In this document: in pieces, positions 20,466 to 63,877 of the stretch
Layout: each line of letters opens with the position of its first letter
Position numbering within the stretch: position 1 is the stretch's first letter
Source: a phage
Assembly (NCBI GenBank): GCA_036253495.1
Contig: GCA_036253495.1_4125.1
Length of the DNA: 64,000 nt
Strand: one strand, 5' to 3'
Program-made: the position numbers and the translations under genes
Notes under the pieces: model-generated
What the model was told of the DNA's origin: nothing
Seen by the model: only the letters and a program-made list of their open reading frames with translations
The model's database searches: none

Positions 20466-20810
20466 ATGACATACAATGAATACCGTGAAATAGATCTTCT
20501 CCAGAATACATTATATGAAATTGAAGATTTAATGCACGGATGGACAAGTCTTTCTTTCTTTAATGAAATGTTCGAAGAAATAAAAGTAGTACTACAGAAA
20601 AAACATAATGGTACTAAAATTAAAATAAAGACTTTCACTGGAGAAGTCTGGTGCGGAGAAATTGTGAAATACATTATAACTCGCAATAACGCATCATTCT
20701 GTTTGAATACTGGTCATTACAGAAATCATTTCAACAATAGCAGTACTCAAATTATTTCCGAGGAAGAATACAATGAGCACTGTAATAAACTTCTTAAGAG
20801 TAGATTCTAA
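20466..20810 (+). CDS. hypothetical protein, 114 aa (family C-like)
   Basis: helical N-terminus then NGTKIKIKTFTGEVWCGEIVKYI, resembling family C; no FQ motif. Confidence 0.6.
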   Translation: MTYNEYREIDLLQNTLYEIEDLMHGWTSLSFFNEMFEEIKVVLQKKHNGTKIKIKTFTGEVWCGEIVKYIITRNNASFCLNTGHYRNHFNNSSTQIISEEEYNEHCNKLLKSRF

Positions 20811-23142: not shown

Positions 23143-23152
23143 GTTCATGCTA

Positions 23153-48588: not shown

Positions 48589-49186
48589 TACATATTTTCG
48601 TTACCTACGCCTTGGGCTATCACTTCGTCCAATTCGAGGTAAATGTGATTCTCTTGCTGATTTAGATTATGCATATTCCATTTATGATGATGGTGTACAG
48701 TATGTTCTGGGTGACTTCGGTGAGTTTGAAGAAACCAATGACAGTACTGGTATTATGGACGGCATTGAGAATCTAGATTGCATCGTAAACAGTTCAAGAC
48801 ATGATGTAATCAAAGAAATTCATAAATTTATTGAAACTAACACAGCAAAAACTACATGGTGTTTAGTAGGTACAGATCCACAAATGGCAATTGCTTTTGG
48901 TAATGAAGATGGATATGTAGCACAACTTATCATGGATTTTGCATCTAAAGAGAAATTTGAAGAATTCAAAGCAAAGATGGTTCAATCACTTCTTCAGATG
49001 GGTATCCCTGAAGATAAGATGCCAGAGATTCAAGATATTGAAGAATTTGTCTTAATTCCTTCAGATGAAAAATATGACGTATTATTCAGTACTCTGAACA
49101 TTCCAGGTGTTATCGTTGAAAGCTTTGATGACGATGATGGTGAAATCTACATCGAACTGGATGATGATGACGACGACGATGAATAA
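48527..49186 (+). CDS. acidic protein with poly-Asp tail (start uncertain)
   Basis: C-terminus DDDDGEIYIELDDDDDDDE; only in-frame ATG overlaps the upstream gene by 62 nt. Confidence 0.55.
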   Translation: MEVIIYSISPRRTILTNTNSNTYFRYLRLGLSLRPIRGKCDSLADLDYAYSIYDDGVQYVLGDFGEFEETNDSTGIMDGIENLDCIVNSSRHDVIKEIHKFIETNTAKTTWCLVGTDPQMAIAFGNEDGYVAQLIMDFASKEKFEEFKAKMVQSLLQMGIPEDKMPEIQDIEEFVLIPSDEKYDVLFSTLNIPGVIVESFDDDDGEIYIELDDDDDDDE

Positions 49187-49190
49187 TAAT

Positions 49191-49218
49191 TATGCCCGAC
49201 TTTGTTCGGGCATCTTTT
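49191..49218 (+). terminator. rho-independent terminator
   Basis: ATGCCCGA/TCGGGCAT stem followed by T5. Confidence 0.85.
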
Positions 49219-49231
49219 TAAGGAAAAGTAA

Positions 49232-49504
49232 ATGGACTATCGAGTACTGAATAGAACATATAAAGCTTTATACAAAACATATATTGAAAGTAAAGTACAT
49301 AATCCTATCATTTATAAAAATCCAGTTTATATTATATGGAATGAATATTTTACAATGATTCAAAATTACTTTTACTCTAACGAAATCTTTATAGATGGTG
49401 AAATGCGTAAGCTAACACGCGTTGATAGTATAGGTGGTGAAATTGTGTTATTCTATACTGATTCTATTATTGGACAACAATCTATAAATTTAGAGATATT
49501 ATAA
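49232..49504 (+). CDS. family C (provisional) paralog C1, 90 aa
   Basis: N-term Y..L..TYK.LY; IFIDGEMRKLTRVDSIGGEI. Confidence 0.65.
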   Translation: MDYRVLNRTYKALYKTYIESKVHNPIIYKNPVYIIWNEYFTMIQNYFYSNEIFIDGEMRKLTRVDSIGGEIVLFYTDSIIGQQSINLEIL

Positions 49505-49770
49505 TGAATTATAAGGATTTACATTTCACCTATAAACTAACATTTTATATGTATCGTTATGCTGATAACAACTTCATGGATAATGCATTTTATCATCGTT
49601 TGTGGAGTGATTATATAAATTCTTTACGTGAACATTTTATAGGTACTATAATTCAATACGAAGGTAAAACAGTAAAAATATTTCAAGTTGATAGTTACAA
49701 CGGGGATCTATGCTTCAAGGGTAGAGATTCTAGTGATGGATTACATGAGATTTATATCTATGAATTATAA
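49504..49770 (+). CDS. family C paralog C2, 88 aa
   Basis: MNYKDLHFTYK; HFIGTIIQYEGKTVKIFQVDSYNGDL. Confidence 0.7.
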   Translation: MNYKDLHFTYKLTFYMYRYADNNFMDNAFYHRLWSDYINSLREHFIGTIIQYEGKTVKIFQVDSYNGDLCFKGRDSSDGLHEIYIYEL

Positions 49771-50035
49771 GGATTTACAATTCACGTACAAAATTCTTCA
49801 TGAACAATATGAACGTGGTGAAGGAATATTAACTTACGATGAACGAGATTTTTTTCTTACATTGTGGTGTGAATATTTGGCAATGATTAACGAGATTTTT
49901 GTTGATAAAGAATATATGATTGACGACATGACTGTACGTATTATCAGAATTAAAAGTTATAATGGAAGTCTTGTTGGAATTTACTATAACAATGAAAAGG
50001 CGAAAAGCGGATTTGTTGATTTGGAGTATCTATGA
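49760..50035 (+). CDS. family C paralog C3, 91 aa
   Basis: start re-set from 49688 to MNYKDLQFTYK; MTVRIIRIKSYNGSL. Confidence 0.7.
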   Translation: MNYKDLQFTYKILHEQYERGEGILTYDERDFFLTLWCEYLAMINEIFVDKEYMIDDMTVRIIRIKSYNGSLVGIYYNNEKAKSGFVDLEYL

Positions 50036-50295
50036 ACTATAATGATTTACAATTCACGTATCAACTTTTATATGATGATATGAATAACGAATTAGGTTTC
50101 TACTATGAAGTACGTAATAAAATATGGTCAAATTATCTATCTGAGATACAACATCATTTTATAGGACTTCCAATACGTAGAAATAATAAAAACTATCGTT
50201 GTACTGATGTAGTAAGTCATAGAGGTAGGTTGCGTTTAGAATTCTACCGCAGAGACGGGGACTTCATTGGTATAAATTTACTGGATTTTAAATGA
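50032..50295 (+). CDS. family C paralog C4, 87 aa
   Basis: MNYNDLQFTYQ; HFIGLPIRRNNKNYRCTDVVSHRGRL; ATGA overlap. Confidence 0.7.
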   Translation: MNYNDLQFTYQLLYDDMNNELGFYYEVRNKIWSNYLSEIQHHFIGLPIRRNNKNYRCTDVVSHRGRLRLEFYRRDGDFIGINLLDFK

Positions 50296-50580
50296 TGAAA
50301 AACAACTTAAAGGAAATACAAGTATTTTATAGATTCTTATACTTGTCATATGTAACAGATGAGTACTATGAAAGTGTGTATTATTTTTTTATGGCAACAT
50401 TACCGTACTATAGTAAGAGATTTATATATAGGAAAATCTATCATATCCAATGGTGAAAAATGTACCTGTACAGATGTTGTTAGTTTTAATGGTTCTTTAA
50501 CACTGTGTTTCAGATGCGATAATAATAGTGGGTCATTTTCATTAAACGTATATCAGTTAGAAGGAATAAATTTTGAATAA
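50292..50580 (+). pseudogene. family C paralog C5 split by a frameshift at a T7 run (pseudogene, slippage site or sequencing error)
   Basis: frame 0 from ATG 50292 gives the family N-half and stops at 50456; the family C-half (LWQHYRTIVRDLYIGKSI...TDVVSFNGSL) is in the +1 frame; frames meet at T7 50384-50390. Confidence 0.55.
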
Positions 50581-50773
50581 GTGTCCATATTGTAACAGTA
50601 CTCAATTAGCTCGTTTCCGCTTAGATTCAGACTGGGCCACTGGTGCTGGGGATTTCTTTCCCATCAATGATGATGCGGAATACACTGAAGAACAGCACAA
50701 AGATTTTGATAAATCATGGCGACCTGACATTGAGTGCATTTATTGCCTTAATTGTGAGCGTGTACATGACTAA
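50573..50773 (+). CDS. small zinc-ribbon protein, 66 aa
   Basis: CPYC...CIYCLNC (two CxxC pairs). Confidence 0.65.
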   Translation: MNKCPYCNSTQLARFRLDSDWATGAGDFFPINDDAEYTEEQHKDFDKSWRPDIECIYCLNCERVHD

Positions 50774-51029
50774 AGCTGAACTAATAGTTCATACATATAA
50801 AATGATATACAGTACTGAGTTATCCTGTGGTGCAGATAATCCAGTACTGGACTATTTTATAGAATCTTTGAAAGAACATTATATTGGTAAATCACTGATT
50901 CTTAATAATATTAATTTCACTGTAAAGGATGTAGCACCTGGAAAAAACGTACTAATAGTATGTGTTACTTCATCTGATAACCCAGTATACCCAATAACAA
51001 TAATTTTTGAGGTATTAGGTGATTTATGA
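50766..51029 (+). CDS. family C paralog C6, 87 aa
   Basis: start re-set from 50643; HYIGKSLILNNINFTVKDV. Confidence 0.65.
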   Translation: MTKAELIVHTYKMIYSTELSCGADNPVLDYFIESLKEHYIGKSLILNNINFTVKDVAPGKNVLIVCVTSSDNPVYPITIIFEVLGDL

Positions 51030-51316
51030 ATATCATTTTAATACAGAAAACATATGCTATATTGGTGAAAGATTATTCCATTACATTCGATTCACAAGAA
51101 AGTGCTCTACATAACCTATACAAAAACGTAACACAAGAATACAGAAATATGTTTTCTGACTTAGTAGTAGGAAGATATTTCAGTACTAGAAAATATCCAA
51201 AACTTCAAGCAGAGGATGTTTCTTTTTATTTCAATGGTCATATTACTATTCATAGTTTAGACCAAAATTCACCAACGTACTTAAACTTTTCATTCGATGA
51301 GGTAACCTTTTTATGA
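51026..51316 (+). CDS. family C paralog C7, 96 aa
   Basis: LVVGRYFSTRKYPKLQAEDV; ATGA overlap. Confidence 0.6.
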   Translation: MNIILIQKTYAILVKDYSITFDSQESALHNLYKNVTQEYRNMFSDLVVGRYFSTRKYPKLQAEDVSFYFNGHITIHSLDQNSPTYLNFSFDEVTFL

Positions 51317-51495
51317 GAACATTATTTTTTATCTGGAGTCTTTTTTCTCTTGCAGTACTGACAGTTGCAGGTGCTTATTCATTTTTAACAATGAATACAT
51401 GGTATATCAATTTACTATTTCCAATTGTCGGTGTAGGTTTAGGATTTACTTTACATAGTGTATGTAAGGATTTCAATGACAAATCAAACAAATGA
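51313..51495 (+). CDS. small membrane protein, 60 aa (two TM helices)
   Basis: FFIWSLFSLAVLTVAGAYSF and INLLFPIVGVGLGFTLHSV; ATGA overlap. Confidence 0.6.
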   Translation: MRTLFFIWSLFSLAVLTVAGAYSFLTMNTWYINLLFPIVGVGLGFTLHSVCKDFNDKSNK

Positions 51496-51760
51496 AGTAC
51501 TTATTGCTGAAACAATGAAGATGATTTATAGTATTACTACAGCACAGAATATGCCCTATCCCATTAAGTCTTTATTGAGGACCGTGTATCTTGTGACTGT
51601 GCAGGAATACTATAAATCCAAGCACAAAAGCATTATTAGTGTTTATCGTGATTATGAAAGGATTCGTATTTTGTACTGGAACAAGAACCGAGTACGTTCT
51701 GAATGTGACCTTGCGGACTTCAAATTAGAGAATCTTTATTGTTATAAAGCGGGACAGTAG
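51476..51760 (+). CDS. family C-like paralog C8 (divergent), 94 aa
   Basis: start re-set from 51458; size and position only, weak similarity. Confidence 0.5.
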   Translation: MTNQTNEVLIAETMKMIYSITTAQNMPYPIKSLLRTVYLVTVQEYYKSKHKSIISVYRDYERIRILYWNKNRVRSECDLADFKLENLYCYKAGQ

Positions 51761-51778
51761 TATAAGTAGTGATATAAT
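51751..51778 (+). promoter_or_regulatory. promoter with extended -10
   Basis: GGGACA 51751-51756, N16, TGaTATAAT ending 51778. Confidence 0.55.
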
Positions 51779-51818
51779 TGTTGGTATGGAATAATAACTA
51801 ACACAAGGAGCGTGTAGA

Positions 51819-52547
51819 GTGATTGACCGTATCAGATTTGCCAGCGAGTTAGCAAACCAATTAAACATTGCAAATTTCCAAATGCTAACATCCGTAATGG
51901 CAGAACATGCAACTGCATATTCAGTAAGTGGTGTCCAATGCGGACAAGAGAATTTACTAGCTGATGTATACAGTGAAGTGCAAGGTAAACAATATTCAGT
52001 CAAAACATACAAGGATAAGTTTGTTAGTCTGTATATGAACGGCGATATTGAAGAAGAACGTAAGTTTACCGATTTTATTATTGAACGTCGTGTATCAGGT
52101 GTGTCAAACCCGAATGCTGCAAGTGATGTAGTATTTGATGAAGTACTGAAAGATATATACGAAAATGAAGCGAAAAGTAAGAATCATTACAATGTACGTG
52201 AAACTAACACAGTGCTCTTGGGATATGATGAAGACGAATTTTTCTATTATTTCCGTATAACTGAAGTACCTTTTGATTATAAAAAACCACATACCACATG
52301 TGCTCGTGAATTTACTGAAAAGAGTAAAAACTACAAAAAGCACGAAGGCAATCGTTGTAGTGTAAATGGTTATGATGAGAATGGTGTACACATTTATGAA
52401 TGGGTACATCCGAACTGTCAGACTTACACACGTTGCCTTAAAAAGAGATATAATTTAGAAGAACATGAGTCTTTCTACTTCAAAGTTAAGAAGCAAGATT
52501 ATAACAGACCAGACGATTCTGAATTACTTGGTATGATTTACTTCTAA
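51819..52547 (+). CDS. hypothetical protein, 242 aa (GTG start)
   Basis: SD AAGGAG 9 nt upstream of GTG 51819. Confidence 0.7.
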   Translation: MIDRIRFASELANQLNIANFQMLTSVMAEHATAYSVSGVQCGQENLLADVYSEVQGKQYSVKTYKDKFVSLYMNGDIEEERKFTDFIIERRVSGVSNPNAASDVVFDEVLKDIYENEAKSKNHYNVRETNTVLLGYDEDEFFYYFRITEVPFDYKKPHTTCAREFTEKSKNYKKHEGNRCSVNGYDENGVHIYEWVHPNCQTYTRCLKKRYNLEEHESFYFKVKKQDYNRPDDSELLGMIYF

Positions 52548-52555
52548 GGTAAGTT

Positions 52556-52834
52556 ATGAATTTACAAAGAGATGTGTGGACATATGAATATCTTTTAGAA
52601 CTTTATGGTGATATGTATATTAAAAATAAACCATACATAGACGATATAAGGGCTATGATAGATGATTTTTCTTCTGAGTTTATTCCACTTTATACTAATA
52701 AAGAAGTTACACATAAATCAATGAATAAATCAGGTATCATTGATGAAATTGATTTTGATACACATGGTGTGTATTTTTATATTATTTTCTCCAATGATAC
52801 TGTTGGTATATACACGTATAAAGAATTAAAATAA
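52556..52834 (+). CDS. family C-like paralog C9, 92 aa
   Basis: helical N-half, beta-like C-half GIIDEIDFDTHGVYFYIIF. Confidence 0.55.
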   Translation: MNLQRDVWTYEYLLELYGDMYIKNKPYIDDIRAMIDDFSSEFIPLYTNKEVTHKSMNKSGIIDEIDFDTHGVYFYIIFSNDTVGIYTYKELK

Positions 52835-52839
52835 GTACA

Positions 52840-52866
52840 GGCCAGCATGGATTGCTGGTCTTTTTT
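52840..52866 (+). terminator. rho-independent terminator
   Basis: GGCCAGCA/TGCTGGTC stem followed by T6. Confidence 0.8.
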
Positions 52867-52877
52867 GTAGGTACATT

Positions 52878-53177
52878 ATGGACAAAATACAATTAGTTAG
52901 TAGTACTATAACAATGCTTGCTGATGTTGCCAGATGGAGCAGTGGTGGTTCCGTTAGTACTATGCTCGGTATACTCACGCAATACACCTATACATGCAAT
53001 GGAATGTTATATGGTAAGGAGGTTGAAATTGATGATCCCTATGGAATTCCCATATCATATGACCGAGGTGTAATAAAAAGGGTTACTCTGAGACTAACAT
53101 ATCATCCATATTTTGTAGTAGAACTTCCAGATGGAAAATTAAGAGAATATGTTGCTAAAAGGTTAAAACTAAAATGA
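52878..53177 (+). CDS. family C-like paralog C10, 99 aa
   Basis: MLYGKEVEIDDPYGIPISYDRGVIKRV. Confidence 0.55.
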   Translation: MDKIQLVSSTITMLADVARWSSGGSVSTMLGILTQYTYTCNGMLYGKEVEIDDPYGIPISYDRGVIKRVTLRLTYHPYFVVELPDGKLREYVAKRLKLK

Positions 53178-53752
53178 ATATTGTAGAATTAAGTACTAAG
53201 CTGATTACTATGCGTAACGAGTGGTACAATTGGTATTATAACGGTACTGACATGGATTTTTCAAAATATCCATTTATGGAATCAGGATGTGATTCAAGAT
53301 ACCGCTGGTTGAGTAAAGATGATTCTGGTTTACATATTCGAGTTGATGATAGTGGTCAGGGAATTATAAAAGATTTACTTCAAGTTGAAGAACTCGTCCA
53401 TGATGAGTGGTGTGATAATGATCCATACCTAGGAAATATAATTTATGTAACTGAAGATGATTGTATATTCGTCATTCAGCGTCATGGTGATTCTATGTTT
53501 TATATAGCAGACAGCAGTACACCTGAAGGTGCAGCATCAGATGGTCTTATTCCTAAGATTAATATATTAGATTTTGGCTTACCTGAGCACTTCCAGATGA
53601 GTACTCTATTCGATATTCCACCGTTTGAGTTCTTTGACGAATTTAAATTGTACTACAGTGATCTTCAGAAATTGAGTACAGAGAGTCGTATTGAAATAAC
53701 TGTCAGGTACATGGACGGGGCAAAATTAACCGACACGGGGATAGAATTTTGA
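53174..53752 (+). CDS. family B paralog B51, 192 aa (outlying copy)
   Basis: motif LPEHFQMSTLFD; ATGA overlap. Confidence 0.7.
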   Translation: MNIVELSTKLITMRNEWYNWYYNGTDMDFSKYPFMESGCDSRYRWLSKDDSGLHIRVDDSGQGIIKDLLQVEELVHDEWCDNDPYLGNIIYVTEDDCIFVIQRHGDSMFYIADSSTPEGAASDGLIPKINILDFGLPEHFQMSTLFDIPPFEFFDEFKLYYSDLQKLSTESRIEITVRYMDGAKLTDTGIEF

Positions 53753-54438
53753 TTAAAGATTTAGATAGAATTTTATATGTACTAAGGGGTGTAATTACTT
53801 TACAACCACAGATTAACCGCATGGAGAGAGCCTTTGAATTAAAATCAAGAGAAACTCCATATTCACATATATCAAATGTAGTTGGCTCATTCTGCTCTGA
53901 AGACTCTGCATATGATATATATGTGTGTGAAGTACAGCCCAGTAATGATCTTGGTTTTGCAATCTTCGATAAAAATCAAGTACTGGTCAGTATGTTTCAG
54001 TGCAATAATCCTTTCTGGAAAACATGCCTGTACCCTGATTGGGCTATGCTTGACCCTACGAAGAGTAAGATTAAAGTATATGACTCTAAGAATGAAGAAG
54101 TTGTTATTGATTTGGATGAATCAATGACAGAGGAAGAACACTTCCAGCTTATGATGATGCGTGCGATGCCAGACTATGAAGCAATGATTAACACAGTACA
54201 ATACATTAAGGATACGATGAGATCATTGTGTAATCATGAGTTTTGTCATCCAGTATCTTATGAACATTTGGATTTAGATTTCAGTACTATCAAGTTTAAA
54301 GATAGTGTTATTGAATATATCCAAGAGAACACTAAATTTGATTTTATTAGTACAATGACAAATAATCCAAATACTAATTTCAGGCATCAGTACAATGAAT
54401 CTTTGTCTAATGGTCGAGATACCAGTTGGTGGAAATAA
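53749..54438 (+). CDS. family B paralog B52, 229 aa (outlying copy)
   Basis: motif EEEHFQLMMMRA; TTG start in TTGA overlap. Confidence 0.65.
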   Translation: MIKDLDRILYVLRGVITLQPQINRMERAFELKSRETPYSHISNVVGSFCSEDSAYDIYVCEVQPSNDLGFAIFDKNQVLVSMFQCNNPFWKTCLYPDWAMLDPTKSKIKVYDSKNEEVVIDLDESMTEEEHFQLMMMRAMPDYEAMINTVQYIKDTMRSLCNHEFCHPVSYEHLDLDFSTIKFKDSVIEYIQENTKFDFISTMTNNPNTNFRHQYNESLSNGRDTSWWK

Positions 54439-54439
54439 T

Positions 54440-54703
54440 ATGAATATCCAAGATAGATTGCAATTGTTGCACACACTTGAAGAAGCTGCTTTTGAACTTG
54501 TTAATAAAATTGCACAAGAACTCCCAAAAGGAACCAACATTCGTGTTCGTGAAATGGATTATTTAACGGGAGAAATTGAAGAAAAAGTTCTAACAGTGAT
54601 CAAAGTAACATACTATGAATCAGAGTTATCAATTCAATGTAAGTCAGATAATGGTTACGTTTCCTACTATGGCACAGATGTAGATATAGAGGTAATTAGA
54701 TGA
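54440..54703 (+). CDS. family C-like paralog C11, 87 aa
   Basis: start re-set from 54395; KGTNIRVREMDYLTGEIEEKVLTVIKV. Confidence 0.55.
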   Translation: MNIQDRLQLLHTLEEAAFELVNKIAQELPKGTNIRVREMDYLTGEIEEKVLTVIKVTYYESELSIQCKSDNGYVSYYGTDVDIEVIR

Positions 54704-55845
54704 GTAATTTACGAGAAATATACAATGATTTAATGGAACTATGTGAATCTAATGATGCATTTTTCTATATAGATCACACAAGCCCTGGTGGTGGTTTATA
54801 CCGTGTATTCACCTATCGTCTGGCATCTTATACCGATTTCACAAATAAAAATGCACTAGAAACTCGTGGTTCTATGTGGGAAATTGATTCCAACGGAATT
54901 ATGATTCGTTGTGCAGCACGTACAATGAAAAAGTTCTTCAATGCATATGAAAACCCGTACACAATGTTCAGTACTGATACTACCTGTGATGATATTGCGG
55001 TTGTAATGCCTAAGCTAGATGGATCTATCATCAGCACATTCCGTGATAATGATGGTGAAATCCGTTGCAAATCACACACTTCGTTATCTTCTGACCATGC
55101 TATTAACAGTACTCGACTTTTGAACGAGAACCAAAATCTCTATCAATACATTGATGAAGCAGACCGTTTGGGCTATACTGTGAATCTGGAATACACAAGC
55201 CCAGAGTATCGAATTGTGTTACCATATCAGGTGGAACAGTTATTTGTTCTTAACGTTCGTCATCGTATTAGTGGTGAGTTGTTATGCGGTAAAGCACTAC
55301 GTGATAAGTTTCCATGCCTTTCACAGTACAGTACTAATATGACAGGTAATGACATTCATCATACATTCCCGATTATGCCTACATTTAAAGAGTCAATCGA
55401 TAAAGTACGTTCTATGATTGACATTGAAGGTTTTGTGTGTATAATGAAAGATGGTACAATGTGCAAAATCAAAACTGACTGGTATTGCTCTTTGCATTTA
55501 ACAAAAGATTCCATTCTTATTGATTCCCATTTATATGAAGCTGTACTGACTGGTGCAAGTGATGACTTAAAACAATTGTTCAGTACTGATACATATGCTA
55601 TGGATAAGATATTAAGAATGGAACAATTGGTATTTTCGTGCTATAATGCTTTACAAGATGAGGTAGAAAGCTTCGTCCATGCATACAAGCACTTAGAGCG
55701 AAAGGAATTCGCACAAAAGGTTCAGCAAGATTTACCGAATGTATTGAACCGACAAGGCTTGGCCTTTGCGTTGTACAATGGCAAAAGTGTCGATTATAAA
55801 GAGACTTTACTAAAGTACTACAAAGATGTACTAAAGGATTTTTAG
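54700..55845 (+). CDS. rnlA: RNA ligase 1 (T4 RnlA type)
   Basis: collinear by eye with T4 Rnl1: LMELCES..FFY, YR(V/I)F(T/S)Y..ASY.D, nucleotidyl-Lys motif PKLDGS, EGFV..MKDG...KIK.DWY..LH. Confidence 0.9.
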   Translation: MSNLREIYNDLMELCESNDAFFYIDHTSPGGGLYRVFTYRLASYTDFTNKNALETRGSMWEIDSNGIMIRCAARTMKKFFNAYENPYTMFSTDTTCDDIAVVMPKLDGSIISTFRDNDGEIRCKSHTSLSSDHAINSTRLLNENQNLYQYIDEADRLGYTVNLEYTSPEYRIVLPYQVEQLFVLNVRHRISGELLCGKALRDKFPCLSQYSTNMTGNDIHHTFPIMPTFKESIDKVRSMIDIEGFVCIMKDGTMCKIKTDWYCSLHLTKDSILIDSHLYEAVLTGASDDLKQLFSTDTYAMDKILRMEQLVFSCYNALQDEVESFVHAYKHLERKEFAQKVQQDLPNVLNRQGLAFALYNGKSVDYKETLLKYYKDVLKDF

Positions 55846-55874
55846 TACTAACTAGCCCAGCACAAGGAGAAGTG

Positions 55875-56129
55875 ATGGCTAAACCTAAGTATAAAAATGA
55901 TGGTTCCCTTTCTCCTACTGAGTTCAGGAAAATACAACAAGAAATCGATGATTTACAGCACAAACGCTCAATGAAAGGTGTGAAGATTAGTAAGAAGCGA
56001 ATCGAGAATACTTTTGGGTGTAGTAGTACTGAATATAAGAAGAAAAGGAAACCAAAGGATGTTAAGCCGAGAATACATGATGTAACTCGCTATACATCAA
56101 AACGTGAAAATAAATTCGATCCACTATAA
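55875..56129 (+). CDS. basic hypothetical protein, 84 aa
   Basis: SD AAGGAG; ATG 55875 (track GTG 55872); Lys/Arg-rich. Confidence 0.6.
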   Translation: MAKPKYKNDGSLSPTEFRKIQQEIDDLQHKRSMKGVKISKKRIENTFGCSSTEYKKKRKPKDVKPRIHDVTRYTSKRENKFDPL

Positions 56130-56138
56130 GGAGTTCAT

Positions 56139-56375
56139 ATGAAAGTTGAAGTTCAGCATAGTATTGTTCAGGATATGTCAGTGGTTAAGTTTCTTTCTCT
56201 GAAAGATTACTTCAGATGTATCAAGTTCCTTGAAGAATCTCAATTACAGTGGACCCCCTTAAAGTACAGTTCATCCAATGACACTGCTAGTATTCGTTGT
56301 GATGAAGCTGTACTTGTAAAAATCTCCAAGCGATTTGGAGTTGGGAAATACAATGAAAAACAATCATTCAAGTGA
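56139..56375 (+). CDS. hypothetical protein, 78 aa
   Basis: track ORF; SD AAGGAG. Confidence 0.65.
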   Translation: MKVEVQHSIVQDMSVVKFLSLKDYFRCIKFLEESQLQWTPLKYSSSNDTASIRCDEAVLVKISKRFGVGKYNEKQSFK

Positions 56376-56607
56376 TTTGTTATATTATAAAGTACTATCA
56401 GAATGTTTGACAGATGTATTGTACCGTGAGAGTAATACTCTACGTGCAAAATATATTAACAAAAGAGTACGTTATAAATCATCTTATGATGGGATGAATG
56501 TTTATGGTAAAATCACTAATGTATATGTAGATGATGATTTTACATTGAATATCACTGTCGATAATTGTATTGGTATCTCAATTGATGATATTATTGAGGT
56601 AATCTAA
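56353..56607 (+). CDS. family C paralog C12, 84 aa
   Basis: start re-set from 56335; KYINKRVRYKSSYDGMNVYGKITNVYV. Confidence 0.6.
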   Translation: MKNNHSSDLLYYKVLSECLTDVLYRESNTLRAKYINKRVRYKSSYDGMNVYGKITNVYVDDDFTLNITVDNCIGISIDDIIEVI

Positions 56608-56918
56608 TGAATAAAGCATTAAAAGAACTTCATAATTTAATGAATGCAGAAATTGAATTAACTAATACTATTTCTGAAATTGTTCATGATATGATTACAC
56701 AATACAAGAAATCACTCATTGGTAAGAAAGTTGAATGCTGGGATTACAACACTAAAACATGGTTCGAAACTATCATTAGTGATGTTAATGTTAAATTTCA
56801 TGTAGTTACTCATCACATTTCTGACGAGTGCTATGTAGAAGTAACTATAGGACACAACACGCGACATGAACGTTTTTCGTGGTACAATCTAAAGAATGTG
56901 AAATTTATTGAGGATTAA
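56607..56918 (+). CDS. family C paralog C13, 103 aa
   Basis: SLIGKKVECWDYNTKTWFETIISDV. Confidence 0.65.
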   Translation: MNKALKELHNLMNAEIELTNTISEIVHDMITQYKKSLIGKKVECWDYNTKTWFETIISDVNVKFHVVTHHISDECYVEVTIGHNTRHERFSWYNLKNVKFIED

Positions 56919-57851
56919 ATGCCAACTATTACACTAACAGTTGGATTGCCAGGATGTGGTAAAACCACGTGGGCAGTGCAAGAAATTAAAAAAGCAAAGT
57001 CCAAGACTATCAACATCAACCGTGATGATATTCGAGAGTCTATGGCTGGGTCACATGATGCTTATAAATTCACTGATGCGAACGAGAAGTACGTAACTAA
57101 TCAACAGTTCAGTGCAGCAAACGCCGCAGCAGCGAATGGATGGAACATTATTGTGTCCGATACGAACCTGAAACAAGGTTTTCGTGATGAATGGAAACGT
57201 TGGGCTAAAGATAATGGCTACGACTACAAAGAAAAGAACTTCTACGAAGATTTTGTACCGAATGAAGACCGTGGTGCAGATGTTCATGAATTCTTTAAGA
57301 TTAAGGAATTCGTGAAGCTCTGTAAGAAACGCAACCTTCTTCGTGAGCGTTCAGTACAAGATGAAATCATTGACACTATGGCAGATACGTACTATTATAG
57401 TAAGGCGATGCACATTGGTTACTATGGTAATGCACGTGAAGCTGCTATCATTGTTGATATCGACGGTACTCTTGCTCATAAGTGGGGACGTAACCCGTTT
57501 GATGAAAGTACTGTCCTTCAGGATACACCAGATGAAGAAGTAATTCTGTCTGTCATTGCTGAGGCTGTTTTCCATAAGCGTAAGGTAATCGTCATGAGTG
57601 GGCGTACTGAAGGGTGTCGTGCTGATACTGAACAGTGGCTTAAGAATTGGGGCATTCCCTACGATGTATTGTTAATGCGAGCTATCGATGATAAACGTCC
57701 TGATGATGTTGTCAAATTCGAGTTGTATATGAATAACGTTGTTAATCATTACGATGTTAAGAAAGTATTTGATGACAGGGCCGCCGTTGTATTCATGTGG
57801 CGTAAGCTACTAGGCTTGAAAGTATTTCAGGTGGAACCTGGACTATTTTGA
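56919..57851 (+). CDS. pseT: polynucleotide 5'-kinase / 3'-phosphatase (T4 PseT type)
   Basis: P-loop GLPGCGKTT, NINRDD, SDTNL, HAD phosphatase motif VDIDGTLA, MSGR, DDR..VV.MWR as in T4 Pnk. Confidence 0.93.
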   Translation: MPTITLTVGLPGCGKTTWAVQEIKKAKSKTININRDDIRESMAGSHDAYKFTDANEKYVTNQQFSAANAAAANGWNIIVSDTNLKQGFRDEWKRWAKDNGYDYKEKNFYEDFVPNEDRGADVHEFFKIKEFVKLCKKRNLLRERSVQDEIIDTMADTYYYSKAMHIGYYGNAREAAIIVDIDGTLAHKWGRNPFDESTVLQDTPDEEVILSVIAEAVFHKRKVIVMSGRTEGCRADTEQWLKNWGIPYDVLLMRAIDDKRPDDVVKFELYMNNVVNHYDVKKVFDDRAAVVFMWRKLLGLKVFQVEPGLF

Positions 57852-57860
57852 TTATTACAA

Positions 57861-57884
57861 AGGGATCAGTACTGATCCCTTTTC
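57861..57884 (+). terminator. rho-independent terminator (perfect 20-bp palindrome with AGTACT centre)
   Basis: AGGGATCAGT/ACTGATCCCT followed by TTTTCTTTT. Confidence 0.8.
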
Positions 57885-57903
57885 TTTTAATTTAGGTGAT
57901 ATA

Positions 57904-58164
57904 ATGGATAATAGTTATGATGTACATTTCAAACAATGCCAGTTGGTTTTACACTCCCTAATGGAAGAGTTGCGAATCAAGTACATAGGCAAAATTGCTA
58001 CATGTTTATCAACTGGAAGACGTGGGCAAATTGTAGAGATTTATTATTCTCCACTTAGTGATGAAATTAAAATAAAAGCTAAAATATTCCTAACTGGATC
58101 TAACAATTTCTTGGGTGAACATATGGTAAAAATTATCTCTGAATTATCGATAACGGATGAATAA
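57904..58164 (+). CDS. family C paralog C14, 86 aa
   Basis: KYIGKIATCLSTGRRGQIVEIY; SD AGGTGAT. Confidence 0.7.
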   Translation: MDNSYDVHFKQCQLVLHSLMEELRIKYIGKIATCLSTGRRGQIVEIYYSPLSDEIKIKAKIFLTGSNNFLGEHMVKIISELSITDE

Positions 58165-58166
58165 AC

Positions 58167-58433
58167 ATGGATATTAATAAAGATTTTAGATTTATCAATT
58201 CGCATATACAAGTACTGAAAACATTAGTAAAACAAGTATCAGAAAAATACACAGGAACTTATGTTAGATGTGCTTTTGATGCAAATGACTGGCAACGAAT
58301 TATAAAAATAGATTCAGTTTATCTTGATACAAATAATAGTATTACAGTTTCAGGTATTGATATGTATGGTCATCGATATCAATTTACTACAAGAGCCACA
58401 ATAACTACAGTGGATGGATATGAATACGAATGA
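58167..58433 (+). CDS. family C paralog C15, 88 aa
   Basis: KYTGTYVRCAFDANDWQRIIKIDSV. Confidence 0.65.
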   Translation: MDINKDFRFINSHIQVLKTLVKQVSEKYTGTYVRCAFDANDWQRIIKIDSVYLDTNNSITVSGIDMYGHRYQFTTRATITTVDGYEYE

Positions 58434-58719
58434 ATTCCAAGCATTATTGAAAACATTATATCTTCTTAAAGAAGAATCTCTTGCAATGTATAATGAAAAA
58501 CAATACAAGTTTGAAGAACAACTCATTCATTTTCATGATGAATATCTTGACTTTTTGAATAAAAAATACTCAAATGTTCAGTGCAAATATCGAGGTAGTG
58601 ATGTTATTATTACCGAAATCGAATCCAGTACTTACGGATATCCATACCTTTGTTGCAAATATATCCCAAGTAATATAACATTTCGCTCAAGAATGTATTC
58701 GAGGTTTATTTTTTCATGA
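58414..58719 (+). CDS. family C paralog C16, 101 aa
   Basis: KYSNVQCKYRGSDVIITEIESS. Confidence 0.6.
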   Translation: MDMNTNEFQALLKTLYLLKEESLAMYNEKQYKFEEQLIHFHDEYLDFLNKKYSNVQCKYRGSDVIITEIESSTYGYPYLCCKYIPSNITFRSRMYSRFIFS

Positions 58720-58997
58720 ATAATGATTCATTGAAGTTTTTTTATTATCATTATCGTATTTTACGTAGTTTATATTTTTCAGAATCCGATGAAAGATTAC
58801 TAACATCATTATCAGTACTGATGGATAATTACGAGAACGAATTATCAAAAGTGGTTTTTGGTGTCAATGTTCTAGATGATACCGATTTAACATGGACAAT
58901 TATTGAAGTGGCGACCTGGAATGGTAATATTTTGTACAGGTGCGAACGAGCAGGTTTTTTATGGGATGCAACATATGACGAGATTAGAATTGTATGA
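58716..58997 (+). CDS. family C paralog C17, 93 aa
   Basis: VVFGVNVLDDTDLTWTIIEV; ATGA overlap. Confidence 0.6.
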   Translation: MNNDSLKFFYYHYRILRSLYFSESDERLLTSLSVLMDNYENELSKVVFGVNVLDDTDLTWTIIEVATWNGNILYRCERAGFLWDATYDEIRIV

Positions 58998-59274
58998 CAG
59001 GCAAGTGAAATTGATAAGAGATACTCGTCGTTTCTTTCATACTCAATTAGTAGACCCATGTTATGATATTTCCGATTTCCTTGAAACCTATCTCCTTGAT
59101 CTAACTACACCACTGCTTAAAAAATACGTAGGAACAAAAGCTATATATCTTGGAAGAGAAGTTGAAATTACCAACATATCATATTCTTATGGGGCATACA
59201 TGTATACGGCAAAATCTGATAATGGACAAAGATATTATGCAATACGATCAAGAGAACTTACTATTATTGGATAG
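58975..59274 (+). CDS. family C paralog C18, 99 aa
   Basis: start re-set from 58903; KYVGTKAIYLGREVEITNISY. Confidence 0.6.
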   Translation: MTRLELYDRQVKLIRDTRRFFHTQLVDPCYDISDFLETYLLDLTTPLLKKYVGTKAIYLGREVEITNISYSYGAYMYTAKSDNGQRYYAIRSRELTIIG

Positions 59275-59566
59275 GCATCTTGCTATTCTTATCGACCTTG
59301 TGATGGAAAGTGATGTAAAAATTTTTGAAAGTAGATTTCTTGAGGATTATAAAACTGAATTGCAAGAACTGTACAAAGGTAAAAAAGTATTACTTAGTAC
59401 TGGTGACTATGGTAAAATTGAGTACGTGTATTATGAATGGAAAAAGGTTATATATTTTATAAAAACCAAAATAAAATACCAAAATAAAACAAGAACCTAT
59501 AAAGCATATTACGATTCAAATGAGATAGAGATTATATATGACCAACACGTTAATAACAAAAAGTGA
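59237..59566 (+). CDS. family C paralog C19 (start uncertain)
   Basis: LYKGKKVLLSTGDYGKIEYVYY; ATG 59237 or TTG 59266 (track 59150). Confidence 0.55.
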   Translation: MQYDQENLLLLDRHLAILIDLVMESDVKIFESRFLEDYKTELQELYKGKKVLLSTGDYGKIEYVYYEWKKVIYFIKTKIKYQNKTRTYKAYYDSNEIEIIYDQHVNNKK

Positions 59567-59861
59567 ATTAGATTATTTGAATTATATAAACAGATACTTT
59601 CTGATTCTATATAATATACTTCTTGAAGAACAATGCACTAAATCAAACCATCAGTTATATAACTATATTAACTGTATAATTAGTGAAATATATGAATCAT
59701 TGGAAAAGAGATTTAAGTACAGAACTATTAAGTGCGAAGATGATATTGTATATATTCATGGTGTTTTTGGTACAGGATATGGAATATTCGTTGATTATAA
59801 AATACACCCATTTGATCCGTACATAGAAAATAGTATGTACATAGAAGAGATTGAACTATGA
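59538..59861 (+). CDS. family C paralog C20, 107 aa
   Basis: RTIKCEDDIVYIHGVFGTGYGIFVDY. Confidence 0.6.
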   Translation: MTNTLITKSELDYLNYINRYFLILYNILLEEQCTKSNHQLYNYINCIISEIYESLEKRFKYRTIKCEDDIVYIHGVFGTGYGIFVDYKIHPFDPYIENSMYIEEIEL

Positions 59862-60175
59862 CACAAGAAGAATATAATAAATTAATAATGTACGAGAATC
59901 ATTTTAATTATTGTCTGAAATGGTTATTGTACATTGATAACGTTGAGATGGATATGTACAGAAAAGAGGTGAATAAACGTGTTAAAGATTTCTATTACGA
60001 ATTGACTGATCTTTTTTATAATAATGTAGTATATGAAGCAAATACCAGTCGTGATTATGACCTTTATATCAAGCAAATATGGGGTACTGACTACGGTCTG
60101 ATGATTGATTGCAGTACTGATGTTAATACAGACAGACCCAGTACTACATTGTATCTGGATGAGATTTTCATATGA
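59858..60175 (+). CDS. family C paralog C21, 105 aa
   Basis: DLYIKQIWGTDYGLMIDC (cf. C20); ATGA overlap. Confidence 0.6.
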   Translation: MTQEEYNKLIMYENHFNYCLKWLLYIDNVEMDMYRKEVNKRVKDFYYELTDLFYNNVVYEANTSRDYDLYIKQIWGTDYGLMIDCSTDVNTDRPSTTLYLDEIFI

Positions 60176-60474
60176 ATGAACTATTACTTTGTCATAAAAC
60201 ATACATTATGCTATTCAGAACGTGCCATGATATGCGAATTGAGGGGATACTAGACTACCCAACTATGATGATTAACTTCAGGGTGTTAATGGATTCATAT
60301 TCACAATCTGTTATTGATGCATTTGAAGGTAGAGAAATAAAGTTCAAAAATGCCAGGACAAATAATGAGCTATGTGATACAATTAAATCAGTGGGGATTT
60401 CGGTTCCAAATGTGTACGTAATCCCATTGATGTACGGAAAAGTAGTATCCACTAACGAAATTATTAGTATATGA
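60172..60474 (+). CDS. family C-like paralog C22, 100 aa
   Basis: FEGREIKFKNARTNN; ATGA overlap. Confidence 0.55.
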   Translation: MNELLLCHKTYIMLFRTCHDMRIEGILDYPTMMINFRVLMDSYSQSVIDAFEGREIKFKNARTNNELCDTIKSVGISVPNVYVIPLMYGKVVSTNEIISI

Positions 60475-60770
60475 TTAAAACATTATATGAAGCAGAAGAA
60501 ACATATAAACTTCTGTGGGAAACTTTTATTTTTGACAAATACTATAATAGAACTGAATGGTTAGAGGTAAGTAAAATATATCTTCAAATTTTAAATGATT
60601 ATTTTTGTCCGTTCGTTGCTGAATGTAAAAATAATCCAATTGAAGAAATTAATATAATCGAAATAGTAGATGGGTTTGGTGCGTGGTTGATATACCAAGA
60701 CAACTATCACTTTTCTAATTATATCGAAGATATCGGTAAAATAATTGTAATTAAAGGAGTCATACTATGA
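60471..60770 (+). CDS. family C-like paralog C23, 99 aa
   Basis: size, position, helical N-half; ATGA overlap. Confidence 0.55.
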   Translation: MIKTLYEAEETYKLLWETFIFDKYYNRTEWLEVSKIYLQILNDYFCPFVAECKNNPIEEINIIEIVDGFGAWLIYQDNYHFSNYIEDIGKIIVIKGVIL

Positions 60771-61384
60771 TTTATGCACTATACGTACTATACGTACTTG
60801 GTCTGGTTATTGGTTGGTTTTTGGCAAAATCTTACAACCGTAATGCACTGGCATACACAGTATTTGGTATTATTTTTACGCCAGTACTAGAACTAGGTTT
60901 ACTAATTATTATGGGTCGCCGTGACATGACACCAGTCATTGACGATAATCGTGATAAAGCAGTACATGATGTACCAGTTTTTGAAGGATATACGCCAACT
61001 TTAACTGTTGATGACGTTTACATTGATGGTGCTGCTGAAGAAGTTAAATCAGTTCAGGAAGAAGTTGAAGAAGTTCCAGTAAAAGAAGAACCACAACCAA
61101 AAGCATCAACAACTAAAACAAAAGCAAAAACTTCTAAGAAAACAAAAGGTCGCAAGACTAGCACTAAAAATACCAAAAAAACCAGTACAACTCGCAAAAG
61201 CACTAAAACTGATAAGGAAGCATCTTCCAGTACTACCAGTACTGATGATGGTACAAGCACTGTTCTACTGACAGCAGCAACAACTGCCGCAATTATCAGT
61301 ACTTCATCCTATAGCGACTCATCTTCCTCTTATGACAGTGGCTCTTGTGATAGTTCAAGCTCAAGTTCAGGAAGCTGTGATTAA
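60767..61384 (+). CDS. membrane protein with Lys/Thr-rich and Ser-rich low-complexity tail, 205 aa
   Basis: two N-terminal TM helices; KASTTKTKAKTSKKTKGRKTSTKNTKKTSTTRKSTK; C-terminus SSSYDSGSCDSSSSSSGSCD. Confidence 0.65.
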   Translation: MIYALYVLYVLGLVIGWFLAKSYNRNALAYTVFGIIFTPVLELGLLIIMGRRDMTPVIDDNRDKAVHDVPVFEGYTPTLTVDDVYIDGAAEEVKSVQEEVEEVPVKEEPQPKASTTKTKAKTSKKTKGRKTSTKNTKKTSTTRKSTKTDKEASSSTTSTDDGTSTVLLTAATTAAIISTSSYSDSSSSYDSGSCDSSSSSSGSCD

Positions 61385-61728
61385 TGGTTCCGTTATCATC
61401 TGAACTAAGGTACTTCGAATCTCTCCTTGATCTTCAATCAGAATTCGTTAGTACCTTAAAAAATAAATTAATAGGCAAAAAAGTAAAATTCACTCAAGAG
61501 TATATTGACCACATCAATAAGGCTAAGGAGGATGAAGTAGATTCTGACTGGATTTATTGTGATGATGAAGCTTCTCATATCAACGAAAATACAGTTATGT
61601 TTATTACTTTGTTGCGAGTAAAGAATTCATCAATCTATGTTGATGTTGAATATGAAAATCCAAAAAGTTCTGAATGGTACGGATTCACTTACCGTTTAGA
61701 TCGTTTAGAACTAATAGAAGAGGAATAA
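61384..61728 (+). CDS. family C paralog C24, 114 aa
   Basis: NKLIGKKVKFTQEY (cf. C13 SLIGKKVECW). Confidence 0.6.
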   Translation: MVPLSSELRYFESLLDLQSEFVSTLKNKLIGKKVKFTQEYIDHINKAKEDEVDSDWIYCDDEASHINENTVMFITLLRVKNSSIYVDVEYENPKSSEWYGFTYRLDRLELIEEE

Positions 61729-61971
61729 ATGATTTTATTTTTTGCTTTGTATGGTGTAGGAGTACTGAGTACATTTATCAGTACTTTTCTTATCATCAAT
61801 TGGGGTTCTTTTAAAGATACCCCTACCACAATGATTAATATTAGTACCTGCTCTATGTTATCAGTACTGTGGCCTGTGTCGTTGGTGTATCTTTTCATTT
61901 CAATCTGTAAAGATTTTTACGATACACTAACAAAATTCAAGAAGAAGAAACATGACAAAGACGGAAATTGA
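61729..61971 (+). CDS. small membrane protein, 80 aa
   Basis: ILFFALYGVGVLSTFISTFLII and CSMLSVLWPVSLVYLFISI helices; basic tail. Confidence 0.6.
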   Translation: MILFFALYGVGVLSTFISTFLIINWGSFKDTPTTMINISTCSMLSVLWPVSLVYLFISICKDFYDTLTKFKKKKHDKDGN

Positions 61972-62206
61972 ACAGTTAAAGATGTTACAATCGTTATCTG
62001 ATGATTTTGTCCAACGTGCTAAGCACAAATATATTGGTCAAGAAATTCTTCTTAAACACTCCAGAGGTTGGCAAAAAATATGCATAAGAGATATGGGAAC
62101 ATATTATGGTGATGTGCGATATTACGTAGATTGCTATGTTAATGACCAAATTGCCAATACTCAAGTTGTCACCTATGATAAAATTATATGGATTAAAGAA
62201 CAATGA
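61952..62206 (+). CDS. family C paralog C25, 84 aa
   Basis: KYIGQEILLKHSRGWQKICIRDM. Confidence 0.65.
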   Translation: MTKTEIEQLKMLQSLSDDFVQRAKHKYIGQEILLKHSRGWQKICIRDMGTYYGDVRYYVDCYVNDQIANTQVVTYDKIIWIKEQ

Positions 62207-62946
62207 AACATTTCTTAGAAGTAACAGTTCCTGATGAAAAAGATTTGTATATAGTAGGAGACATTCACGGTAATGCAAAACTATGGGAACATACCAAGAA
62301 AGAATTTGGTATTACTCCTGAAGATTATGTATTCAGTTTAGGCGATTTAATTGACAGAGGTGAGCAAAGTGCTCACCTTTTGTTTGAGTTTTTATTCGCT
62401 GAGAATCGATATATGATCATGGGCAATCATGAATCGATGTGTATTGATTCTGCAACTCATCGTGACTGGTATCATTGCTGGACACAGAATGGGGGCGATA
62501 AGTTCCTGGAAGAAGTTGGTGTATCAGGAGTGGAATTCTTCCGTCAGTACTTGAACCAGCTACCTATGATTATCCAAATCAATCACAGAGGACTCAAGAT
62601 TGGCCTCGTACATGCAAGTGTAGACCTTAAGCACACTGACTGGAATAAGTTCATTACTGGGACAAAATCAATGTCCAGTGATACAATTGAGTCATGCCTA
62701 TGGGACAGAAAGACATTTGATTTCTGTAAAGCTAACAACGTCTTTAATGCACCACGTATTGCTAACGTCGATTACGTTCTTAGTGGTCATACCGCTGTGT
62801 TTGATCCCCTAATTTATGGAAACCGTATCTGGATTGACAGTCAGTTCCTTACTGGTGATTTGACTATTGCTACCCCACAAGGTGGTAAGATGCGTTATTT
62901 GCGTAAAGAAAAAGACGAATATTCATTCAGTCGATTCAAAAGGTAA
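62203..62946 (+). CDS. Ser/Thr protein phosphatase (lambda-phosphatase / calcineurin-like metallophosphoesterase)
   Basis: GDIHGN, GDLIDRG, GNHE, later GH motifs in canonical order; ATGA overlap. Confidence 0.85.
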   Translation: MKHFLEVTVPDEKDLYIVGDIHGNAKLWEHTKKEFGITPEDYVFSLGDLIDRGEQSAHLLFEFLFAENRYMIMGNHESMCIDSATHRDWYHCWTQNGGDKFLEEVGVSGVEFFRQYLNQLPMIIQINHRGLKIGLVHASVDLKHTDWNKFITGTKSMSSDTIESCLWDRKTFDFCKANNVFNAPRIANVDYVLSGHTAVFDPLIYGNRIWIDSQFLTGDLTIATPQGGKMRYLRKEKDEYSFSRFKR

Positions 62947-62951
62947 TTATT

Positions 62952-63230
62952 ATGCATGACATGATTGATAGTGCATTAACCGAATTTAACTTTTTTAAAA
63001 AATCACTCGATACAATAATCAATGATACCAACCAACAAATGAAAGACCATTTAAGTGATAAATTGGTTGGTCGTTGGGTTGAGCTACCATATATAGATGG
63101 AACTACTGTTGGTGTGATTCATAGAATTGTAACAATTCATGAAGTGAAGGTGTATGTTGAAATTTTGGTTGACAATGAAACTAACAAATGTTTTGTACAA
63201 TTAAGCACTGAAGATTTAACTTTTTTATAA
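62952..63230 (+). CDS. family C paralog C26, 92 aa
   Basis: KLVGRWVELPYIDGTTVGVIHRIV. Confidence 0.6.
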   Translation: MHDMIDSALTEFNFFKKSLDTIINDTNQQMKDHLSDKLVGRWVELPYIDGTTVGVIHRIVTIHEVKVYVEILVDNETNKCFVQLSTEDLTFL

Positions 63231-63239
63231 GGATATAAA

Positions 63240-63467
63240 ATGAAAGTAATTTATGTTCAGGTTGAAAAATATCAAACTGAAGATGGTCGCATTTTTGATT
63301 CAGCTAAACAAGCTGAGCATCATGAACGTATTATTTCTGGTGTTCGTCGCATTTGTCCTAAATGTAACGGAACACAACAAGTTCCCGATGAAGAATTTCG
63401 TCGCTATTATGCATGTCCAGATTGTGATGGTAAAGGATATGTAGAAAAACAAGAGGTATGGAAGTGA
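63240..63467 (+). CDS. small zinc-finger protein (DnaJ-type CxxCxGxG repeats), 75 aa
   Basis: CPKCNGTQ and CPDCDGKG. Confidence 0.65.
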   Translation: MKVIYVQVEKYQTEDGRIFDSAKQAEHHERIISGVRRICPKCNGTQQVPDEEFRRYYACPDCDGKGYVEKQEVWK

Positions 63468-63877
63468 AACTATATTGCTTAACAAACATGTACTGTCAGG
63501 GTGTTCAGGCTGGCATTCAGGCATTTCATGCTGGTATTAAACTCGTCAAAGATTATGAAGGTTCAGTATTCAGTACTCTAATCGATGAATGGTATAATGA
63601 GCACGAAACTATTGTAATTCTCAATGCTGGCAACCAAGATAAATTAACCACTCATTACGAGAATCTATCCAAACAGGGCAAGGTTCCATTTGCTAAATTC
63701 AATGAACCAGGTTTGAACGATACCCTCACTAGTGTAGCAGTACTATGCACTGAAGAAATGATTGATGACATGGCACTGATGCGTACTAACGACCCAATGA
63801 CTGATTTACAGCTATGTCACAAATACGGTCATATGTACGAAACACTAAAAGCTATGAGTACAATGAGGACTATTTGA
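63458..63877 (+). CDS. hypothetical protein, 139 aa; weak PTH2 (peptidyl-tRNA hydrolase 2)-like pattern
   Basis: GVQAGIQAFHA...W....ETIVILNA...L..L...G.....F.EPGLN..LTSVAVL resembles the PTH2 layout; by eye only. Confidence 0.3.
   Translation: MEVKLYCLTNMYCQGVQAGIQAFHAGIKLVKDYEGSVFSTLIDEWYNEHETIVILNAGNQDKLTTHYENLSKQGKVPFAKFNEPGLNDTLTSVAVLCTEEMIDDMALMRTNDPMTDLQLCHKYGHMYETLKAMSTMRTI

Follow-up and report, generated by a model that had tools for sequence, protein, structure and literature searches.

Small genes at 49.2–63.2 kb of an Asteriusvirus-type phage contig are diverged paralogues with a predicted helix-plus-barrel fold

About 21 small genes (84–114 amino acids, aa) at 49.2–63.2 kb of a 64,000-nt stretch of phage DNA (GenBank assembly GCA_036253495.1, contig GCA_036253495.1_4125.1; the whole stretch is here called the window) are diverged paralogues of one protein, a family that expanded through tandem duplication. 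Its members hold fixed slots between conserved enzyme genes, including rnlA, pseT and a phosphatase gene, and the sequence found in a given slot differs sharply across phage lineages. We propose, with a probability of roughly 0.55, that the encoded proteins are diversified intracellular protein-binding modules belonging to the accessory gene set of the phage. An earlier note, made from the sequence alone, had listed about 26 copies in this region (C1–C26 in the following). The coordinates given for these open reading frames (ORFs) were confirmed and the family is real, although smaller than thought: by sequence comparison about 21 members appear supported, three (C10, C11, C22) are borderline, and three candidates (C8, C23 and a look-alike ORF at 20466) are rejected.

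Over its full length, 49232–63230 matches Escherichia phage A4, an Asteriusvirus of 355 kb, with 98.4% identity, and about 47% of it is matched by the other Asteriusvirus phages 121Q, PBECO4, phAPEC6 and G17, at about 86% identity. Every gene of this region lies on the + strand, as do all ORFs given below, and the genes are tightly packed with frequent ATGA-type start/stop overlaps. All candidates annotated in the A4 GenBank record are called “hypothetical protein”.

All-against-all phmmer comparison of the 159 + strand ORFs in the window (at least 45 aa) yielded links confined to C1–C6 (E 4e-12 to 4e-4), and a profile seeded with C1–C5 converged on exactly C1–C7. Iterative profiles were run on a pool of 567 ORFs from the window and the syntenic regions of nine relatives (Turkey3, 121Q, JNE01, Turkey5, G17, RaK2, GAP32, CBB and Erwinia phage pEa_SNUABM_50), to which 2835 shuffled or reversed decoys were added. 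Seeded with C13 or C24, these profiles gathered 15–16 window ORFs (15 with C24) from both arrays and from the single genes, and recruited none of the 2835 decoys, no enzyme and no membrane-protein ORF. Since iteration is prone to drift, three controls were applied. For leave-one-out scoring, the family profile was stripped of the ORF in question, together with orthologues and close paralogues, before that ORF was scored; 12 ORFs reached E < 1e-3 and seven more 1e-3 to 0.02. The leave-one-out score of each ORF was then compared with 3000 composition-matched shuffles of itself, and at most one shuffle equalled the real score for 20 ORFs (C1–C7, C9, C12–C20 and C24–C26), followed by a weaker band with C11 (6/3000), C10 (7/3000) and C22 (13/3000). 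Finally, two profiles without common members, famI with 40 sequences of the array-1 type and famII with 44 of the single-helix type, aligned in register on a Y-I-G-K-x-V motif (hhalign E 9.8e-5). The alignments run full-length, and the candidates excluded from each profile ranked above 17 control ORFs taken from this region (Mann-Whitney p 9e-7 and 2e-6). Applied to shallow per-ORF alignments, hhalign mostly returned low probabilities, of which the ranking alone is informative. The idea that these ORFs form one family and are not a collection of singletons is thus borne out.

Array 1 comprises C1 (49232..49504, 90 aa; phmmer to C2–C5 E 1e-7 to 9e-6; 0/3000 shuffles), C2 (49504..49770, 88 aa; leave-one-out E 1.8e-8; 0/3000), C3 (49760..50035, 91 aa; supported by phmmer/profile, leave-one-out and shuffles), C4 (50032..50295, 87 aa; phmmer/profile and shuffle support), C5 (50292..50580), C6 (50766..51029, 87 aa; profile E 3.6e-24; 0/3000) and C7 (51026..51316, 96 aa; profile E 8e-25; 0/3000; phrog_28826). 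Several of these proteins had been said to start with MNYKDL(H/Q)FTYK. This applies to C2 (MNYKDLHFTYK) and C3 (MNYKDLQFTYK); taken together, C2–C4 begin with MNYKDL or MNYNDL. The 5′ 49 nt of C2–C4 constitute a direct DNA repeat, which points to recent tandem duplication. C5 is frameshifted in the window, where one extra T in a T-run at about 50383–50390 splits it into 50292–50456 and 50359–50580. Its C-terminal piece scored 0/3000 and its A4 counterpart, A4_415, is intact with 94 aa; the split may be genuine or stem from a sequencing error in the homopolymer.

Array 2 starts with C14 (57904..58164, 86 aa; 0/3000; famII 98.1%), the first gene past the pseT terminator, and continues with C15 (58167..58433, 88 aa; 0/3000), C16 (58420..58719, 99 aa; leave-one-out E 1.5e-5; 0/3000), C17 (58716..58997, 93 aa; 0/3000, 16.1 bits against 10.6 for the best shuffle), C18 (58975..59274; leave-one-out E 1e-4; 0/3000), C19 (59237..59566, 109 aa; 1/3000; famII E 2.5e-4), C20 (59538..59861, 107 aa; 0/3000; famI hhalign 96.6%, E 6e-10) and C21 (59858..60175, 105 aa). 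The latter is a member via C20 (hhalign 95.7%, E 3.7e-9) and scored 66/3000 alone. C18 has 99–102 aa, depending on its start at 58966 or 58975; it is intact but unannotated in the A4 GenBank record (gap 79003–79243), and other assemblies have a protein of 101–104 aa at this place (P0003, 102 aa; P0006–P0008). The supported single genes are C9 (52556..52834, 92 aa; leave-one-out E 4e-5; 0/3000), C12 (56353..56607, 84 aa; leave-one-out E 1.2e-5; 0/3000), C13 directly 5′ of pseT (56607..56918, 103 aa; ≤1/3000), C24 (61384..61728, 114 aa; 1/3000), and C25 and C26, which lie directly 5′ (61952..62206, 84 aa; leave-one-out E 5.8e-5; 0/3000) and directly 3′ (62952..63230, 92 aa; 1/3000; famII 99.2%) of the phosphatase gene.

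The borderline ORFs are C10 (52878..53177; famII hhalign E 0.012), C11 (54440..54703; famII E 0.0029) directly 5′ of rnlA, and C22 (60172..60474; hhalign E 0.004 and 0.011). In RaK2, the slot of C11 is occupied by a clear member, ORF463 (E 2.5e-10). C8 (51476..51760) behaved like a control, with 111/3000 shuffles and a famI hhalign E of 6.5e-4 as its sole support, and C23 (60471..60770) failed with 1811/3000 and a leave-one-out E of 1100. All these failing or borderline copies come from the set that had been flagged as uncertain (C8–C11, C22, C23), of which C9 is supported. A look-alike within the array of another family, B (20466..20810), had also been pointed out; with a leave-one-out E of 18, 125/3000 shuffles and hhalign results equal to those of controls, it was dropped.

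The most conserved stretch of the family is the IGK segment (columns 42–48 of the profile hidden Markov model), in which the glycine is present in 13 of 22 sequences. This segment had been singled out by the earlier note, and it withstood the composition-matched shuffles. Along the alignment, the strongest conservation runs from hydrophobic residues in the final helix through (K/H)(Y/F)(I/V)G(K/T)x(V/I) to an isoleucine and alternating strand hydrophobics; the motif column was aligned across 39 sequences. An AlphaFold model of C13 (predicted local distance difference test, pLDDT, 84.2) has a helix at residues 3–37 and strands at 41–46, 51–56, 59–68, 73–83, 91–94 and 98–100, and one of C4 (pLDDT 89.6) has helices at 3–18 and 25–43 followed by four strands. 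In both, the helix stops just before the motif glycine and the first strand begins 3–4 residues after the helix end. The predicted fold therefore opens with a long helix, replaced by a helical hairpin in the C1–C7 branch, and continues with a turn of aromatic-aliphatic-glycine signature (IGK) and a barrel of four to six strands, an architecture found in both modelled members. Because the glycine sits at the helix-strand junction in both models, the motif is probably a structural turn and does not look like an active site. In the C13 model the barrel is predicted to be SH3/Tudor-like, with the SH3-like five-stranded arrangement of Tudor, chromo and PWWP domains, and the guess of a helical N-terminal half followed by such a barrel thus proved right.

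In the column counts, neither a conserved aromatic cluster outside the core nor conserved surface residues beyond it were seen. Conservation at hydrophobic core residues and at the turn glycine suggests a fold serving as a scaffold with diversifying surfaces. Most members are acidic (isoelectric point, pI, 4.4–6.7), which argues against general nucleic-acid binding. The likeness to the Royal class (Tudor, chromo, PWWP) and to KOW and PAZ barrels is one of fold class only: identity in structural alignments is 5–20%, there is no match between sequence profiles and, unlike in those domains, the barrel is preceded by a helical hairpin or one long N-terminal helix; neither an aromatic cage nor the glycine pattern of KOW was established. 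A Foldseek search of viral models matched uncharacterised proteins exclusively. Among these, helix-plus-barrel proteins in BFVD (A0A6J5T4G7; Achromobacter phage AchV4, Burkholderia phage AH2) are similar in size and layout (E 3e-4 to 8e-3); they are 14–23% identical, no function has been assigned to any of them, and no expansion of them is known.

Searches of Pfam with 18 members returned no match up to E 1, and specifically no sequence match to KOW, LSM (Sm/Hfq), PAZ or CarD_TRCF; the KOW motif, the Sm1/Sm2 motifs of Sm/Hfq with their short helix N-terminal to the barrel, and the basic PAZ pocket for nucleic-acid 3′ ends were likewise not found. By sequence, no relative was found in the PDB, where the best hit, a partial match to eS7 (E 0.007), was discarded. 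In PHROGs the members are scattered over 13 families, all of unknown function, including phrog_32291, 21004, 28826, 32812, 28139, 31355, 33398, 11429, 29135, 37322 and 34190. These families come from the same phage group and match individual members, so that more than 10 separate unannotated families are here united as one superfamily with a predicted fold. An exhaustive HMMER search of 1.84 billion representative proteins gave 22 clusters, all of 84–114 aa and all on E. coli phage contigs of about 350 kb, and word-indexed searches of 5.8 billion proteins gave close relatives only; among the relatives from both kinds of search, no domain fusion was found. None of gp350–gp395, the products of the corresponding region of phAPEC6 (with gp376c as RnlA and gp372c as PNK), is present among the 62 proteins of the phAPEC6 virion proteome (PMC7247149, Table 1).

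The barrel class would also suit transcription modulators that dock on host RNA polymerase and redirect it, as the RNA polymerase-interacting domain of CarD/Mfd and the KOW domain of NusG do, and the members are indeed small, acidic, not associated with virions and encoded in a non-structural gene region. About 20 divergent copies are hard to square with a single conserved target, however, and the lack of a CarD_TRCF or KOW match and of conserved surface residues beyond the core makes us regard such a role as improbable.

Within the syntenic region (20–64 kb), to which these counts refer, the profile found 16 copies in the window, 14 each in 121Q and G17, 12 each in Turkey3, JNE01 and Turkey5, and 8 in RaK2. 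No member was detected by profile in the syntenic regions of GAP32, CBB and pEa_SNUABM_50, where the order RnlA, PseT, phosphatase is unchanged. Judging from these sequences, the family seems limited to Asteriusvirus-type contigs and, more weakly, RaK2, in line with the lineage-specific expansion that had been suggested, and related genera appear to maintain the enzyme cluster without it. Because GAP32, CBB and pEa_SNUABM_50 keep the enzyme order without a detectable member, a functional tie to the adjacent enzymes is not supported.

DNA similarity to 121Q is restricted to 47009–49223, 50206–52563, 53156–56356, 56918–57890 and 62179–63992. The gaps in between correspond exactly to C1–C4, C9–C10, C12–C13 and C14–C25, with borders at gene ends. 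The largest of these, 57891..62178 (C14–C25 and two membrane-type ORFs), also lacks DNA similarity to Turkey3 and JNE01. Two terminator-like hairpins on the + strand mark left borders: one at 49192..49213, just 5′ of C1, where 121Q similarity stops at 49223, and one at 57859..57882, after pseT and just 5′ of C14, where it stops at 57890. Another lies at 52839–52861 between C9 and C10, within a variable segment. At the segment borders, no repeated elements of the kind associated with early-gene shuffling in T4 were found, and a scan for sigma-70 promoters showed no excess (88 sites against 95 in shuffled sequence). GC content reaches its minimum for the window (0.291, elsewhere 0.32–0.41) at 58001–60000, where array 2 is specific to the A4 lineage.

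Slot for slot, the proteins share 30–44% identity, compared with 76–96% for the flanking enzymes, and synonymous divergence (dS) is about 1.3–1.5 in slots versus 0.3–0.7 for immediate neighbours (55872, 56139, pseT), which hints at replacement of alleles beyond fast change in place. Another possible role is that of accessory factors which, as Sm/KOW/PAZ-like barrels, would bind RNA ends or tRNA and pass these on to RnlA and PseT. Single copies do adjoin rnlA, pseT and the phosphatase gene, and the same slots are occupied in 121Q and RaK2. Yet the slot occupants diverge to this extent between lineages whose enzymes are 83–90% identical, the majority of copies lie in arrays apart from the enzymes, and GAP32, CBB and pEa_SNUABM_50 keep the enzyme order with no detectable member; with the acidic character of most members and the missing KOW, LSM and PAZ matches, we consider RNA-repair helpers improbable.

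Between close strains the copies are constrained. Compared with A4, the family has 44 non-synonymous and 55 synonymous differences and a pooled ratio of non-synonymous to synonymous differences per site (pN/pS) of 0.19 (other genes: 0.11), therefore indicating purifying selection. C15 alone holds 47 of the 225 nucleotide differences between window and A4 (pS 0.54) and has near-identical neighbours; it resembles a recombination patch through which a different allele was introduced. The frameshift in C5, the low GC content of array 2 and copy numbers that differ among phages might be expected of decaying duplicates without function. This is very improbable given the pooled pN/pS, the fact that the remaining copies are all intact ORFs with coupled start/stop overlaps, and the presence of the same proteins in several independent 350-kb contigs.

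Protein-binding modules are the favoured reading because most of the proteins are acidic, no fusion to another domain was found, none was detected in virions, conservation is limited to the core, and the enzyme cluster of related genera does without them. According to this model, the members would bind proteins inside the cell and serve host takeover or counter-defence, each copy being tuned to a separate target, and new alleles would arrive via recombination among co-infecting relatives. The positions beside RnlA, PseT and the phosphatase would then be plastic sites of insertion within a gene order that is itself conserved and would not reflect partnership. A bolder version, which we put forward only tentatively, is a repertoire of binders in which one scaffold presents variable surfaces, each neutralising a different host factor (a defence system or takeover target), and alleles are swapped as cassettes between co-infecting jumbo phages. 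If so, the set of copies carried by a phage would help to decide which E. coli strains support its growth.

Several points tell against this interpretation. The binding role is deduced from fold, charge and evolutionary pattern, and no homologue gives a function; the fold is taken from models of two members, C13 and C4; and for the timing of expression no Asteriusvirus transcriptome was found in the literature. The slot dS values are saturated, hence both recombination and fast divergence in place fit them. As to membership, a control cytidylyltransferase reached a leave-one-out E of 0.008 and the control ORF 48012–48305 scored 3/3000 (p = 0.001) in the shuffle test. This ORF encodes 97 aa with strands preceding helices; its match to the family is probably due to chance and marks the noise level of the test. 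It makes the band of C10, C11 and C22 (6–13/3000) unsafe, and with controls reaching such values individual weak members could be false, several members having been supported by profile tests alone. The link between famI and famII is also modest (hhalign probability 58%). The modest link and the control hits, the restriction of pairwise matches to C1–C7 and the division into 13 PHROGs families could all be explained by two or more unrelated small-protein families that share a helix-glycine-strand junction and an AT-rich amino-acid composition. We hold this to be unlikely: decoys were never recruited, 20 ORFs beat their shuffles without their own relatives in the profile, the full-length alignments have the same motif in register, C20 of array 2 matches the array-1 profile, and the models of C13 and C4 share the order of elements with the motif at the same junction.

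T4-type phages possess hyperplastic regions in which small early ORFs are shuffled between conserved genes. There, too, small non-structural ORFs fill gaps with sharp breaks in similarity, some beside stem-loops; in contrast to T4-type phages, no repeated promoter-stem-loop cassette was found at the borders here, and every variable gene is a copy from a single family. Lineage-specific expansions are already known from jumbo phages, such as a zinc-ribbon family of Bacillus phage G with about 35 copies (PMC7824862) or the paralogues that make up about 10% of the RaK2 proteins (PMC3622015). The expansion in phage G likewise consists of many tandem copies of a tiny domain in one lineage, with an unknown role, but it involves another fold and another phage group, whereas the present family is hypervariable slot by slot between close relatives. 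The literature on RaK2 and phAPEC6 and overviews of jumbo phages contain only general remarks on paralogues, and we found no account of this family, nor of its unification, fold or hypervariability by slot.

Most genes of jumbo phages are unannotated, and joining about 20 “hypothetical proteins” per genome, scattered across more than 10 PHROGs families, as a single family whose fold is predicted makes this picture simpler. Hypervariable cassettes that sit in a conserved gene order and are nevertheless under purifying selection make promising candidates for genes that determine how Asteriusvirus phages interact with their hosts, and some phages of this genus are under consideration for therapy. 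Should the proteins prove to be binders, the family would offer a compact scaffold that nature itself has diversified and could lead the way to new targets in the host. Otherwise, the cleaner annotation remains, together with the warning that adjacency to RnlA and PseT need not mean a shared pathway.

The earlier note had further estimated that more than half of the genes in the window belong to three expansions, A, B and the present one. Families A and B (8359–24169 and 12958–37026) are real by phmmer single linkage (E < 1e-3), with 25 and 23 ORFs as lower bounds. Together with the roughly 21 members described here, they account for about 43% of the 159 ORFs, which is likewise a lower bound and falls short of that estimate. 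Two larger ORFs between C10 and C11, 53174–53752 and 53749–54438, show weak similarity to ORFs of the B-family region (27766–28104, E 2.9e-4, and 38111–38650, E 1.6e-4) and may, from these matches, be outlying B-type copies.

Other genes of the region were noticed as well. Inside array 1, 50573–50773 encodes a zinc-ribbon-like protein of 66 aa with two CxxC pairs, whose DNA, unlike that of its neighbours, is kept as far as RaK2 (73.6% over 50564–50755). A 205-aa protein encoded at 60767–61384 combines an N-terminal membrane segment with a Ser/Thr/Lys-rich low-complexity tail; it differs from A4 by in-frame indels of 3 and 9 nt and shares about 38–43% identity with its counterparts in 121Q and JNE01. 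For the conserved gene 3′ of a DnaJ-like ORF (63458–63877; also L008 15667–16080), database records disagree, naming its product a hydrolase, a peptidyl-tRNA hydrolase or a serine/threonine phosphatase.

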